DNA of 64,000 nucleotides from positions 28,930 to 92,929 of the forward strand of contig CAVZER010000008.1 of NCBI GenBank assembly GCA_963774355.1, read 5' to 3'. Origin of the DNA: an uncultured Thermoleophilia bacterium (lineage in GTDB: Bacteria; Actinomycetota; Thermoleophilia; Gaiellales; Gaiellaceae). Of the stretch, positions 6,083 to 56,610 are shown piece by piece (position 1 is the first letter of the stretch; the number at the start of each line of letters is the position of its first letter). A model generated the notes under the pieces. That model did not search any database and was not told where the DNA came from. It saw only the letters and a program-made list of their open reading frames with translations. The position numbers and the translations under genes were made by a program.

Positions 6083-6095
6083 CGGTGCCTGGCAC
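6083..6095. repeat. Single 13-nt palindromic unit GGTGCCTGGCACC (half copy of the dispersed 28-nt palindrome)
   Basis: Exact unit in the 27-nt convergent spacer between the iolD stop (6072) and the stop of ORF 6100-6363. Confidence 0.8.
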
Positions 6096-6099
6096 CCGG

Positions 6100-13689: not shown

Positions 13690-13717
13690 GGTGCCTGGCA
13701 CCTCGGTGCCAGGCACC
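13690..13717. repeat. 28-nt palindromic repeat GGTGCCTGGCACC-tc-GGTGCCAGGCACC, inside the E2 linker
   Basis: Perfect copy. In the downstream E2 frame it is translated as VPGTEVPGT. Confidence 0.9.
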
Positions 13718-13759: not shown

Positions 13760-13787
13760 GGTGCCTGGCACCTTGGTGACAGGCACC
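13760..13787. repeat. 28-nt palindromic repeat copy (one mismatch), inside the E2 linker
   Basis: GGTGCCTGGCACC-tt-GGTGaCAGGCACC, 70 nt from the copy at 13690. Translated as PVTKVPGT in the lipoyl-domain frame. Confidence 0.9.
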
Positions 13788-19046: not shown

Positions 19047-19074
19047 GGTGCCTGGCACCAAGGTGCCAGGGACC
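19047..19074. repeat. 28-nt palindromic repeat copy (one mismatch), convergent spacer upstream gene/pheT
   Basis: GGTGCCTGGCACC-aa-GGTGCCAGGgACC between stop codons at 19040 and 19085. It is positioned like a bidirectional terminator hairpin. Confidence 0.85.
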
Positions 19075-28978: not shown

Positions 28979-29006
28979 GGTGCCTGGCACCTAGGTGCCA
29001 GGCACC
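28979..29006. repeat. 28-nt palindromic repeat, perfect copy
   Basis: GGTGCCTGGCACC-ta-GGTGCCAGGCACC, 61 nt upstream of the thrS start. Confidence 0.9.
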
Positions 29007-29053
29007 GCGCATTCACTTGCTGCAAAGTGCGCCTCTTTCATCGAGCGGGGCTC

Positions 29054-29083
29054 TTGCGCGGATCGAGTTCCGCCGCATAGATT
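29054..29083 (+). promoter_or_regulatory. promoter-like box of sRNA candidate copy 1
   Basis: TTGCGC (29054-29059), an 18-nt spacer, then TAGATT (29078-29083). The same arrangement precedes copy 2. Confidence 0.5.
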
Positions 29084-29208
29084 GCGGCTCCCGTCGGGTG
29101 CGTGACGCGAGTAGGTCGAAGCCCCGCCGAGCGACTGCAAAAAGGCGCAAGCCCAAAGCGGCCGGTTGGCGAGGTGGACGAAAGCGACACCGCTCGGCGG
29201 GATTTTTG
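29084..29208 (+). ncRNA. candidate structured sRNA or cis-leader, copy 1 (family not recognised)
   Basis: About 125 nt from the promoter box to a CCGC-UCG-GCGG hairpin plus U5. By manual alignment it is about 70-75% identical to 34942-35068. Invariant blocks are GCGGCUCCCG, CGCGAGUAGGUCGA, CCGAGCGACU, GGCCGGU and GGUGGACGAAAGCG. Confidence 0.55.
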
Positions 29209-29351
29209 GTTGGGGGAGCACCTCCGGTTCTCCCCCCAAGGCCCCCCTCTCCGACACTTGGCGACTCGCGGTGGGCGAGCACGGGCAGAGCCCGCACTCG
29301 CCGTCAAGCGCTCCGCACCCGCGACCCGCGCGACTGCGTCAAGATCGCTTC

Positions 29352-30503
29352 GTGGACTTCTCACTCAGTCCGGAGCAGGAACTGATCAAGAGCACAGCTC
29401 GGGCGTTTTGCGATTCGGAGATCGCTCCTCACGCGGCTGCTTGGGATCGCGCGGAGGCGGTCGACCGCGGGATCGTGGCGAAGCTCGCCGAGCTCGGCTT
29501 TCTCGCGGCTGCGCTGCCCGCCGAGCACGGCGGGCTCTCACTCGACCACGTCTCGTACGCGCTGATCGTCGAGGAGCTCGGCCGGGCAGACTCGAACATC
29601 CGCGGGATCGTCTCGGTCTCGAACGGGCTCTACGGCAAGTCCGTCGCCCGCTTCGGCTCGCCCGAGCAGCGGCAGCGGCTGCTGCCGCCGCTGGCAGCAG
29701 GCGAGGAGCTCGGCTGTTACGCGCTCACCGAGCCTGGCGCCGGATCGGACCCGGGCGGGCTCGAGACGCGCGCCGTCCGCGACGGCGCCGACTGGCTGAT
29801 CAGCGGCAGGAAGATCTTCATCACGCTCGGCACGTGGGCCGCGCACGCGCTCGTGTTCGCCCGCACCGGCGAGCCGGGGCCGCGCGGGATCACGTGCTTC
29901 GTCGTCCCGACAAACGCGCCGGGCTTCGAGTCCCGGCCGGTCAAGGGGAAGCTCGGTCTCCGCGCGCAGGACACGGCCGAGCTTTTCCTCGACGACGTCC
30001 GCGTGCCGGACAGCGCCCGCCTCGGCGACGAGGGCAGCGGGTTCAAGATCGCGATGACGGCGCTCGACCACGGACGCATCTCGCTCGGCGCGGGTTGCGT
30101 CGGGATCGCGCAGGGGTGCCTCGACGCGTCGGTGGCGTACACGAAGGAACGGCACCAGTTCGGCCGGCCGATCGCGAGCTTCCAGCTCGTCCAGGAGCTG
30201 CTCGCGGACATCGCCGTCGAGACGGAGGCCGCGCGCCTCCTCGTCTGGCGCGCGGCCGCGATCGCCGACCGTGGCGAGCGCCACACGGTCGAGGCCTCCG
30301 TGGCGAAGTACTTCGCGAGCGAGGTCGCCGTCCGCGCCGCCAACGCAGCCCTTCAGGCGCACGGCGGCTACGGCTACGTCGACGAGTTCCCGGTCGGCAA
30401 GTACCTCCGCGACGCCCGCGTGACAACGCTCTACGAGGGCACGAGCCAGATCCAGAAGCTCCTGATCGGGCGCGCGCTGACCGGTGAGAATGCGTTCACG
30501 TGA
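29352..30503 (+). CDS. acyl-CoA dehydrogenase
   Basis: GTG at 29352. VDFSLSPEQELIKSTARAFCDSEIAPHAAAWD...YALTEPGAGSD...YEGTSQIQKLLIGRAL. Confidence 0.9.
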   Translation: MDFSLSPEQELIKSTARAFCDSEIAPHAAAWDRAEAVDRGIVAKLAELGFLAAALPAEHGGLSLDHVSYALIVEELGRADSNIRGIVSVSNGLYGKSVARFGSPEQRQRLLPPLAAGEELGCYALTEPGAGSDPGGLETRAVRDGADWLISGRKIFITLGTWAAHALVFARTGEPGPRGITCFVVPTNAPGFESRPVKGKLGLRAQDTAELFLDDVRVPDSARLGDEGSGFKIAMTALDHGRISLGAGCVGIAQGCLDASVAYTKERHQFGRPIASFQLVQELLADIAVETEAARLLVWRAAAIADRGERHTVEASVAKYFASEVAVRAANAALQAHGGYGYVDEFPVGKYLRDARVTTLYEGTSQIQKLLIGRALTGENAFT

Positions 30504-34911: not shown

Positions 34912-34941
34912 TTGCGCGCCGCGATCGGCCGCGGATAGTCT
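34912..34941 (+). promoter_or_regulatory. promoter-like box of sRNA candidate copy 2
   Basis: TTGCGC (34912-34917), an 18-nt spacer, then TAGTCT (34936-34941). Confidence 0.5.
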
Positions 34942-35068
34942 GCGGCTCCCGCCGGGCGCGGAGCGCGAGTAGGTCGATATCCCACCGAGCGACTCAGGCG
35001 CGCGCAAGCGCGAACGGGCCGGTCGGAGGGGTGGACGAAAGCGCCCCCCGCGCCAGGCGGGTTTTTTC
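34942..35068 (+). ncRNA. candidate structured sRNA or cis-leader, copy 2
   Basis: Paralogue of 29084-29208. It ends in a CCCGC-GCCAG-GCGGG hairpin plus U6, and similarity stops at the U-run. Confidence 0.55.
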
Positions 35069-35115
35069 TTGGCAGACTGCGGGCAGGAGTAGCAGGCAGA
35101 CGCGGCCAAACAGCT

Positions 35116-36126
35116 GTGGTCCGGATGTCTGTCACCTCCGAACCCAGCGAGACGTTCGCTCTGCCGATGTCAGAGACTGCATCTCCCCCCGTTCCTGCCG
35201 AGCAGACGGCCGGGAACGACGACGTGGTCAGCCCGGAGCTGGTGCTCGTCGATCCGGATTTGCGGGATCGGCTCGCCTCGCTTCCGCTCCCTGCGCCTGC
35301 CGTTGCACCGGCACACGCGGAGCCGGAGCCCGAGCCGGAGCCGGACCCCGAGCCGGAGCCGGAGCCGGCCCTGCGTGTCGCGCCACTGCCGCCCCCGCCC
35401 GAGCCCGAGCCCGTGCGCGCCGCACCCGAGCCGGTCGAGCCGCCCACCACTGCGCCGGTCCCGCATCGACGGAGGCGCCGTTTCGCGCTCGTCGTCGCAG
35501 CGCTCGCCGGTGCCGGGCTTGCGGCGGCGGCCACGATCGTCTTTCTTCCACGCGACAATTCCTCATCGTCGGGCGCTCGGGTGATCGACCCTGCGACCAC
35601 GGGGCACATCGGCCGGCCGGCCTCGTCGACACCGGCGCCTCCCGCCACCGTCACGGTCGCCCCGGCGACGACGGCGCCGGCGAGGCCGACGACCGCCCCG
35701 GCGAAGCACCGCACCTCGACCGTGCGCACGACACACGGACAGACGACCGCGGGAGCACCGCCGGTCGCGCCGACGACAACTAAACCGTCGACGCCGAAAC
35801 AGAAGCCCAAGCCCAAACCCAAACCGACTTCGACGAGCCCCTCCACGCCACCACCGCCGGCGTCCGCCACGACCCACGAGAAACTCGCCTGGGCACCGAC
35901 GGCCGGCGCCACCGCGTACGAGATGGAGCTCCTCAAGAACTCGAAGAGCGTCCTCCATGTGCGCACGCGCCAGACGAGCCTGATCATCGCCGTGCGGCGG
36001 ACCGGCGCGACAGGCCCGGCCGGCTCGGTGCCCCCGGGGAGCTACGAGTGGGTCGTGTGGCCGATCGTCGGCGGGCACCGGGGGCAGCCGACGGTCCGCT
36101 CGAAGCTGACCCTCCCCGGCCGCTGA
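35116..36126 (+). CDS. hypothetical Pro/Thr/Ala-rich single-pass membrane protein with (EP)8 and (KP)4 repeats
   Basis: 336-aa ORF. EPEPEPEPDPEPEPEP is encoded at 35320-35367, followed by a RRRRRFALVVAALAGAGLAAAATIVFL TM helix, KPKPKPKP, and a C-terminal ~90-aa globular region (YEMELLKNS...YEWVVWPIVGG). Confidence 0.6.
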   Translation: MVRMSVTSEPSETFALPMSETASPPVPAEQTAGNDDVVSPELVLVDPDLRDRLASLPLPAPAVAPAHAEPEPEPEPDPEPEPEPALRVAPLPPPPEPEPVRAAPEPVEPPTTAPVPHRRRRRFALVVAALAGAGLAAAATIVFLPRDNSSSSGARVIDPATTGHIGRPASSTPAPPATVTVAPATTAPARPTTAPAKHRTSTVRTTHGQTTAGAPPVAPTTTKPSTPKQKPKPKPKPTSTSPSTPPPPASATTHEKLAWAPTAGATAYEMELLKNSKSVLHVRTRQTSLIIAVRRTGATGPAGSVPPGSYEWVVWPIVGGHRGQPTVRSKLTLPGR

Positions 36127-56582: not shown

Positions 56583-56610
56583 GGTGCCTGGCACCGTGGT
56601 GCCAGGCACC
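56583..56610. repeat. 28-nt palindromic repeat, perfect copy
   Basis: GGTGCCTGGCACC-gt-GGTGCCAGGCACC between genes 56623-57033 and 55562-56542. A degenerate fragment (CCTAGGCACCAGG) lies at 56551-56563. Confidence 0.9.

Follow-up and report, generated by a model that had tools for sequence, protein, structure and literature searches.

Qrr1-5, LhrC1-5, AbcR1/2 and PrrF1/2 are sibling small RNAs (sRNAs) that are encoded in several copies and pair through conserved unpaired seeds; a multi-copy or tandem layout in which every copy has its own promoter is typical of such families. Here we analyse two related units in a 64,000-nt stretch of DNA (the window; forward strand of contig CAVZER010000008.1, positions 28,930 to 92,929, assembly GCA_963774355.1) from an uncultured Thermoleophilia bacterium of the family Gaiellaceae. 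The units, copy 1 (29054-29208) and copy 2 (34912-35068), both lie on the + strand, and each is probably the gene of an independently transcribed, structured sRNA of about 120 nt that belongs to a large family. Like the sibling sRNAs they are laid out as short genes that stand alone, possess a promoter each and end in a hairpin followed by a U-run, and several paralogues occur per genome, often in tandem. Unlike the siblings, this RNA is conserved in a rod and its loops, has no evident seed or target, and shows no relation to them in sequence or in Rfam.

Two other groups of described RNAs invite comparison. The 4.5S RNA of the signal recognition particle (SRP) and 6S RNA are of the same size class, have their ends paired into an extended hairpin and carry conserved internal loops as likely protein sites; 4.5S RNA also has a GNRA tetraloop at its tip. 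The RNA described here differs from both in its loop sequences and in having many copies per genome rather than one or two, and it lacks the central bubble of 6S RNA. The SRP and 6S models of Rfam gave no match at E values up to 10, and single metagenome-assembled genomes (MAGs) hold at least four copies, whereas SRP RNA has conserved domain IV loops and is single-copy. The genes of bacterial Y RNAs share the strand of rsr (a TROVE gene) and lie no more than 2-4 kb from it, and the RNAs carry the motif GNCGAAN0-1G in the 5' strand of the stem that is formed by their ends; the motif resembles the GGUCCGA contacted by Ro60 (PMC4201824). Yrn1 and YrlA/YrlB resemble our RNA in size (80-130 nt), in the end-formed stem, in a GNCGAAN0-1G-type motif and in having more than one paralogue (PMC4201824). 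They differ from it in that our RNA lacks a tRNA-like module, has no rsr among its annotated recurrent neighbours, is without a match in Rfam and occurs in many dispersed copies.

Comparison of the two copies

The initial annotation had described a unit of about 155 nt that recurs on the same strand, and had taken the extent of the similarity as the footprint of a transcription unit. Its coordinates are right. Global alignment of the two copies gives 76% identity, against 53% in upstream and 49% in downstream flanks of the same length, which is background for this 69% G+C DNA. The sequence TTGCGC, an 18-nt spacer and TAG(A/T)(T/C)T were located in both copies, and the five blocks said to be invariant are all present and identical in the two. 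When a covariance model of relatives was run over the window, it scored 81 bits at copy 1 (29088-29214, E=8e-20) and 79.7 bits at copy 2 (34946-35074), while the next best site reached 13.7 bits; the two copies are thus not chance matches. The minimum free energy (MFE) structure of either copy is one long hairpin, at -62.2 kcal/mol for copy 1 (z=-2.9 against dinucleotide shuffles) and -72.3 kcal/mol for copy 2 (z=-2.95).

Secondary structure of the RNA

The homologue search and covariance model that had been proposed as checks on the two units yielded a family with many compensatory changes and no signs of a mobile element. A rod model was written by hand from single-sequence folds and the alignment, and its pairs were then counted. 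In alignment A2 (128 sequences, 35 pairs) 90.4% of cells are standard pairs, a share that drops to 28-40% once the 3' partners are shifted by 1-3 columns. Compensatory changes are seen in 22 of the 35 pairs, and none of 500 shuffles equalled any of these measures. For subtype B, to which the window copies belong, the corresponding alignment A4 (31 sequences, 36 pairs) is 91.5% paired, against 29-45% after sliding, and 11 of its 36 pairs are compensatory, three of them in the closing helix. G-U pairs are abundant (84 of 128 sequences at two positions, for example), and they identify the + strand as that of the RNA. A secondary structure on one strand that is kept by compensatory changes, as seen here, is expected of a stand-alone sRNA gene. 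RNAalifold on MAFFT alignments recovers the rod in part.

The rod is unbranched, with small internal loops and no branch point. Its base is a closing helix formed by both ends of the RNA (CACCGAGC/GCUCGGUG in type A, CCCGCCGGG/CCCGGCGGG in type B), which covaries; metagenome copies add the compensations CCAAGC/GCUUGG and CCGGGC/GCCCGG. Pairing of the 5' CCCG(U/C)C with the 3' GGCGGG had been suggested either as a closing helix or as an antiterminator. The former stands, whereas the latter falls, as this pairing is itself the stem that precedes the U-rich tail. Above the closing helix follow CGG/CCG, GCGC/GCGC, an asymmetric loop GAGUAG/GAAA, GUC/GAC, and GAA opposite G. Three freely covarying helices, split by small loops, make up the middle of the rod, where type A has a GUA/GAA loop, and some subfamilies have an extra hairpin inserted.

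The apical loop is of the GNRA kind, GGAA or GCAA and sometimes GAAA, GCGA or UUCG. Among type B copies the apex occurs as GAC-GCAA-GUC, CGCGC-GCAA-GCGCG, GCGU-GCAA-ACGC and GGCC-UUCG-GGCC, or with a GCGA loop, and at the apex pairs 60-72 and 61-71 of A4 both sides have changed in 8 and 5 sequences, respectively. The hairpin that had been noticed to keep its pairing between the two copies does so across relatives as well (GGC/GCC, CGCGC/GCGCG, GAC/GUC, GCGU/ACGC and GGCC/GGCC). Two smaller pairings suggested at the same time were not supported: the bases of the supposed hairpin GCG-UGA-CGC (GCG-GAG-CGC in copy 2) pair at long range with the 3' strand, and CCGCC (CCACC in copy 2), thought to pair with GGUGG, gives way to a family model that joins GGU to the GCC in front of it (AUC-type in copy 2) and CCGCC to GGCG.

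The 3' GGAC is identical in every copy seen, including those that depart from the search pattern described below, and tandem neighbours that were found by the covariance model alone keep the loop blocks but for single substitutions. An AGUA on one strand with GAA on the other is the sequence signature of the sarcin-ricin (bulged-G) motif (PMC5737476). This signature is present in copy 1, where GAGUAG faces GAAA between GCG/CGC and GUC/GAC, and we infer that the conserved GAGUAG/GAAA loop may form the sarcin-ricin three-dimensional motif, an S-turn fold with a G-U-A base triple. The likeness to the sarcin-ricin or bulged-G (loop E type) elements of rRNA lies in AGUA on one strand, GAA on the other and G-C helices on either side; those elements are a structural motif, not a gene family, and the loop of this RNA has an extra G on its 5' strand. 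Homology to loop E of 5S rRNA was rejected on the opposite strand topology, judged against the consensus sequence.

Distribution of the family

One genome per species was scanned with the exact pattern GAGTAGGTCGA-N40-70-GGACGAAAGC, which was also used on JGI metagenomes and viral contigs. The genome scan matched at least 120 loci, three chance matches (two in Pseudoclavibacter, one in a Coriobacteriia MAG) were removed, and the genomes hold at least 125 exact-pattern copies in at least 117 loci. The labels of 117 genome loci are almost all Gaiellaceae, Gaiellales, Thermoleophilia or unclassified Actinomycetota MAGs. In the JGI soil metagenomes the pattern matched at least 131 times, over at least 120 loci; one or more of these matches are due to chance. 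Genomes and metagenomes together yield at least about 255 copies, and the viral contigs gave no match. Covariance model R1, built from 57 representatives, made 128 matches in the first 100 loci, about 20 of which are off-pattern and differ by single bases; in the window it matched copies 1 and 2 only.

Copies stand singly or in tandem arrays of 2-3 at about 240-300 nt from one another, each with its own promoter boxes. Both subtypes can occur in one MAG that also has four or more copies, as in CAVXLT01 (L002 with two copies, L051 and L075). The window copies belong to subtype B, the rarer one, with the closing helix CCCGyCGGG.../...CCGGCGGG. Orthologues of copy 1 were found at loci L024, L063 and L081, those of copy 2 at L109, L056, L063:310-434 and L167. 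Copies 1 and 2 are paralogues within a large sRNA family that is confined, as far as sampled, to Gaiellales/Thermoleophilia.

The unit had initially been matched to no RNA family, and the database searches agree. Rfam 15 at gathering scores gave no match anywhere in the window, and in E-value mode up to 10, with both copies, a type A copy and an extended variant as queries, it gave only chance matches of microRNA (miRNA) or sRNA type, far below threshold. A literature search for structured RNAs and RNA motifs in Gaiellales/Thermoleophilia and for the conserved sequence blocks returned nothing relevant; the matches for GGACGAAAGCG were unrelated papers. The family is probably a new, large and lineage-specific family of structured sRNAs. 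A hammerhead-like core was rejected against its consensus sequence, and so was a resemblance of the apex to domain V of group II introns, since the apical helix varies freely.

Gaiellales/Thermoleophilia are common soil actinobacteria, almost entirely uncultured (Gaiella occulta is cultured) and essentially without described RNA biology. The family is a ready-made entry for RNA databases, which would improve the annotation of many soil MAGs, and as a short RNA with clear mutational targets it offers an experimentally tractable entry point. With at least four copies in single MAGs, strong conserved promoters and a core that is near-invariant across hundreds of genomes and metagenomes, the RNA looks unusually important to the cell.

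Promoter and 3' end

A logo of 130 copies, anchored on GAGTAGG, shows two conserved boxes in an otherwise unconserved flank: cTTG at -55 to -52 (T 92%, T 78% and G 75% at -54 to -52) and TAGnTT at -31 to -26 (T 92%, A 92%, G 72%, n, T 75%, T 95%), with an A/T-rich patch further upstream of the -35 box. The spacer between the TTG hexamer and TAGnTT is 17 nt in the family and 18 nt in subtype B. The metagenome set repeats the boxes at the expected places (TTG in 117 of 122 copies, TAnnnT in 118 of 122). Promoter boxes at a fixed distance from the RNA, kept where the flanks are not, are what a stand-alone sRNA gene would show, and they support the earlier proposal that each unit has a promoter of its own. 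A generic scanner for E. coli-style sigma-70 promoters called the boxes of neither copy, so that the promoter call rests on family-wide conservation. The T-rich stretch upstream of the -35 box of copy 1 has a counterpart in GTTTTTC before copy 2, and orthologues retain TTTC or TTTTC; it is a possible UP element. At -18, which is 7-8 nt past the -10 box and leaves 1 nt to the first helix, G is found in 86% of copies and is likely to be the transcription start.

A U-run comes straight after the closing helix in either window copy, U5 in copy 1 and U6 in copy 2 (Table 1); the U5-6 runs had been noted initially. A generic terminator scanner called a local hairpin with a T-run in copy 2 only (35047-35061). 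The closing helix and the U-rich tail are most likely a terminator-like end in which the whole rod would serve as the terminator hairpin. In the sequence of events that we envisage, a sigma-A-type promoter (T-rich stretch, cTTG, 17-18 nt, TAGnTT) would start the RNA about 1 nt before the first helix, and the transcript would fold co-transcriptionally into a single long rod. The emerging 3' strand of the closing helix would then zip the rod shut directly before the U-rich tail, and this zipping would most likely release the transcript. We infer the start, the termination and the three-dimensional motif from these sequence features.

Table 1. Coordinates of the features of copies 1 and 2 and of the REP-like repeat (window positions unless a locus is given).
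Copy	Feature	Position	Strand	Basis or remark
1	T-rich stretch CTCTTTC, possible UP-like element	29033..29039	+	about 15 nt upstream of -35 box
1	-35 box TTGCGC	29054..29059	+	sequence; family logo
1	-10 box TAGATT	29078..29083	+	sequence; family logo
1	predicted RNA, about 119 nt, rod-shaped hairpin ending in U5	29089..29207	+	5' end uncertain (29087-29091)
1	closing helix, 5' strand (UCCCGUCGGGUG, C bulge, GUG)	29089..29104	+	MFE pairing with 29188-29202
1	GAGUAG, 5' strand of conserved internal loop (AGUA half)	29109..29114	+	opposite GAAA 29180-29183
1	GUC and unpaired GAA	29115..29120	+	fold; GUC pairs with GAC 29177-29179
1	apical hairpin GGC-GCAA-GCC, GNRA tetraloop	29144..29153	+	fold; covariation in type B
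1	GAC-GAAA-GCG, 3' strands of loop-flanking helices and GAA(A) loop half	29177..29186	+	
1	closing helix, 3' strand CACCGCUCGGCGGGA	29188..29202	+	fold; family covariation
1	U-run (T5), terminator-like end directly after closing helix	29203..29207	+	
2	-35 box TTGCGC	34912..34917	+	sequence; family logo
2	-10 box TAGTCT	34936..34941	+	sequence; family logo
2	predicted RNA, about 121 nt	34947..35067	+	5' end uncertain by few nt
2	closing helix	34948-34961 with 35048-35061	+	
2	GAGUAG; GUC	34967-34972; 34973-34975	+	
2	apex CGCGC-GCAA-GCGCG	34999-35012	+	
2	GAC-GAAA-GCGC	35034-35044	+	
2	U6	35062-35067	+	
	REP-like repeat	28979-29006, 6084-6096, 13690-13717, 13760-13787, 19047-19074, 56583-56610; L063:6234, L081:3555		

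Of 129 genome copies, 75 have the sequence GGTCC just past the tail (expectation 0.025 per copy), and among metagenome copies it is present in 69 of 122. It sits 21-26 nt after GGACGAAAGC, often as TGGTCCGA, and is found in most type A copies, even those with a broken T-run (AATCTCTGGTCC); the loci include L007, L011, L013, L015, L047, L093 and about 140 others. The window copies lack it and have GGUUGG and CUUGGC instead. Within the RNA, GGUCC has a single complement, the invariant GGAC, which is engaged by the 5' GUC, and no covariation speaks for or against a pseudoknot or a switch. In copies with a second hairpin, GGTCC is the foot of that hairpin. A subfamily with the closing helix GCAGCGAGC/GCUCGCUG has a second long covarying hairpin, GGCGC..GGGAUCnGC-GGAA-GCnGAUCCC..GCGCC, in the 70-80 nt after the RNA, followed by AAGAnCCCUGAAG (loci L005, L019, L049, L053, L061, L111, L114 and L152). 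It has no Rfam match and may either extend the RNA at its 3' end or be an element of its own. Among the matches listed, the metagenome contigs with the RNA are all about 1 kb or longer, and short contigs bounded by the RNA ends were absent; contig ends near the RNA are equally explicable by assembly breaks at a repeat.

The tail is also where a role as trans-acting, base-pairing sibling sRNAs would have to be sought: the RNAs would act as antisense through the single-stranded 3' tail (GAAUUUnUGGUCC) or an opened basal helix, perhaps with an Sm- or Hfq-like chaperone. We consider this unlikely. The multi-copy and tandem layout with a promoter for every copy speaks for it, as does the tail itself, the only longer conserved unpaired segment and the place where GGTCC is so highly enriched; its AAUUUnUGG resembles an Sm-type site (an A-U-rich stretch, then GG), which we treat as a lead only. 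Yet neither window copy has GGTCC, a conserved C/U-rich anti-Shine-Dalgarno loop is missing, conservation falls mostly on paired and internal-loop positions of a very stable rod, and no target was identified. A tblastn search for an Hfq homologue in about 1.5 Mb of Gaiellales DNA, an amount too small to be informative, found none.

Gene context

Downstream genes were called crudely, from G+C at third codon positions. By this call the next gene lies on the same strand in 60 copies and on the opposite strand in 41, and there is none in 30. The different same-strand genes noted initially after the two window copies are as described: an acyl-CoA dehydrogenase (ACAD) gene, confirmed by Pfam, follows copy 1, and an open reading frame (ORF) for a Pro-rich protein follows copy 2. 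ACAD lies downstream in 7 loci, that of copy 1 included (Pfam). Further downstream genes code for an MFS-like protein, sigma factors, SmpB and a glycosyltransferase. In the subfamily at thrS/infC-rpmI-rplT the RNA is followed directly by a convergent gene for a SpoU methylase (on the minus strand at L104 3947-4477, with a Pfam E value of 4e-29). In 35 loci, which represent the main type A locus, the principal sigma-70 gene is about 1.3 kb away. The top clusters of recurrent neighbours within 2.5 kb comprise a sigma-70 factor, a small membrane protein, an FHA protein, a phosphoribosyltransferase, BacA, SpoU methylase, ThrRS, L35, L20, IF3 and ACAD. The neighbours conserved by synteny (the sigma-70 gene, the small membrane protein, the thrS/infC-rpmI-rplT region and ACAD) are functionally unrelated.

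The same-strand neighbour seen most often, at 30-38 loci, is a membrane protein of 65 aa that has two predicted hydrophobic helices and belongs to no Pfam family. Its gene has a TAGGAT -10 box of its own between gene and RNA, behind which it is apparently leaderless. The protein (MHLRPPSxDHGV...; L080:3374-3571 and 37 other loci) is encoded directly after type A copies, near the principal sigma-70 gene.

The initial annotation had proposed an unclassified sRNA or a leader. The first part stands: the evidence supports a stand-alone sRNA that is not an obligatory leader, because the downstream genes are diverse, at least one of them is convergent as confirmed by Pfam, and tandem arrays have their own promoters. 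A cis-acting 5' leader or attenuator, in which the RNA would be the 5' untranslated region of the downstream gene (ACAD at copy 1, the Pro-rich protein at copy 2) and the closing helix with its U-run a terminator regulated by ligand or protein, is improbable. It would account for the same-strand gene after both window copies and for the linkage to ACAD, with a start codon that can lie very near the tail (see below); another type B group stands 6-8 nt, by a crude estimate, before a conserved gene (MQTATVAERPDL), and the imperfect T-runs of many copies would permit read-through. It does not account for the roughly 40% of copies with a called downstream gene that face a gene on the opposite strand, the convergent SpoU methylase among them, nor for tandem arrays, in which the next element is the promoter of another copy. 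The 65-aa membrane protein gene has its own box, the downstream genes are functionally unrelated and not consistently co-oriented, and the aptamers known to bind ligands do not resemble a plain rod that has neither junction nor pseudoknot. As for mutually exclusive conserved terminator and antiterminator pairings, no covarying antiterminator was found; the closing helix alone covaries, and the local 3' hairpin does not track its variants, A remaining opposite C when U changes to C. A T-box leader of the divergent thrS was rejected against the consensus sequence, and there was no Rfam match.

Several observations weigh against an independent unit with a defined rod and end. After the closing helix, a run of at least T5 is found in 123 of 245 copies, T4 in 24 and fewer in 98, and termination may be inefficient in many copies with short T-runs. 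Copies without T5 have a T-rich broken run, and 19 of the 98 with fewer than T4 have a second hairpin and T-run. The conserved GGTCC suggests that many transcripts extend past the tail, or that another activity has its site at this place, and both the start and the end of the RNA are predicted positions. In two loci, L086 (3837-3850) and L017, the ACAD start codon comes only about 10-20 nt past the tail, so that read-through into this gene, and hence an effect in cis, is possible. Turning to the structure, the two loop blocks were part of the search pattern, and their apparent invariance is to some extent built in. No covariation occurs in the GUC/GAC helix, for which a UCG/CGA register is just as possible, and this keeps the sarcin-ricin assignment at the level of sequence. 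When given type B alone, RNAalifold ranks a local 5' hairpin that shows little covariation above the long-range closing helix. Lastly, no candidate partner or obvious RNA-binding protein was seen among the neighbours whose top clusters were annotated.

Some details of the flanks may be added. The distance from type B RNAs to the ACAD start varies from about 10 to about 145 nt among orthologous loci (the start in the window is at 29352), and in the short versions neither a Shine-Dalgarno sequence nor a separate promoter would fit outside the RNA. Between the copy 1 RNA and the ACAD gene, a few nt past the RNA, lies a G/C-rich hairpin without a U-run (GGGGGAGCACCUCCGGUUCUCCCCCC, 29213-29238), which is kept in the orthologous loci L024, L063 and L081. 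The ORF after copy 2 (35125-36123) is rich in Pro, Thr and Ala, with (E/P)-repeats and one hydrophobic segment, and has no Pfam family; a long antisense ORF overlaps it. About 70 nt after a tandem type A pair there is a conserved non-coding stretch that ends in GAAGTTnnCGCAAATTGCGGnAAA, with the palindrome CGCAAATTGCG, possibly an operator or a small element (loci L002, L016, L025, L034, L048, L062, L065, L070, L072 and L093).

Possible functions

For the stand-alone sRNA, we tentatively suggest that it acts through a bound protein, for which it would be a scaffold, decoy or sponge, and not by pairing with mRNA, because its basal half is conserved in sequence and not in pairing alone, its loop is of a protein-recognition type and it has no conserved single-stranded C/U-rich seed. 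A more specific version is doubtful: the RNA could be the subunit of a lineage-wide Gaiellales ribonucleoprotein, an abundant housekeeping RNA like 6S, Y or 4.5S RNA, with an exposed sarcin-ricin-like loop at its centre. Such a particle might be a decoy or a docking site for factors whose normal target is the ribosomal sarcin-ricin loop (SRL), such as translational GTPases or VapC-type toxins that cleave the SRL. Alternatively, it might be a Y-RNA-like tether that can do without an rsr gene nearby. If the loop does serve as a protein-docking site, this would be a new bacterial ribonucleoprotein.

That the rod is itself Y-RNA-like, the partner of a ring protein of the Ro60/Rsr type bound through GUCGAAG, is very improbable. 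The GUCGAAG of copy 1 (about 29115-29122) fits GNCGAAN0-1G, as does the family consensus, and lies in the most conserved block; UGGUCCGA, which is like the GGUCCGA at the Ro60 contact (PMC4201824), occurs just past the tail in many copies, and the size, the long end-formed stem and the several paralogues per genome would fit too. The motif specifies six bases only, however, and so holds little information, and the GUCGAUA of copy 2 does not fit it. The Rfam models Y_RNA and YrlA gave no match even at E values up to 10, the rod has neither a tRNA-like domain nor an internal loop of large size, and no TROVE-like protein was among the recurrent neighbours within 2.5 kb whose top clusters were annotated.

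A DNA-level repeat without RNA function, be it like a repetitive extragenic palindrome (REP) or a miniature inverted-repeat transposable element or a promoter-terminator cassette, is hardly credible in spite of the multi-copy intergenic occurrence and of an unrelated REP-like palindrome family in the window, given that pairing is kept by compensatory changes as the sequence drifts, that G-U pairs fall on one strand only, that promoter boxes are conserved at a fixed distance, that terminal inverted repeats, target duplications and viral matches are lacking, and that similarity ends at promoter and tail in unrelated flanks at positions that are orthologous between MAGs.

The REP-like palindrome is an intergenic repeat of two tandem copies of a 13-nt palindrome (GGTGCCTGGCACC-NN-GGTGCCAGGCACC), with six or more occurrences in the window and others in related MAGs (Table 1). 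It accounts for the spurious miRNA matches in the E-value mode of the Rfam search. One of its copies lies between the start of thrS and the promoter of copy 1.

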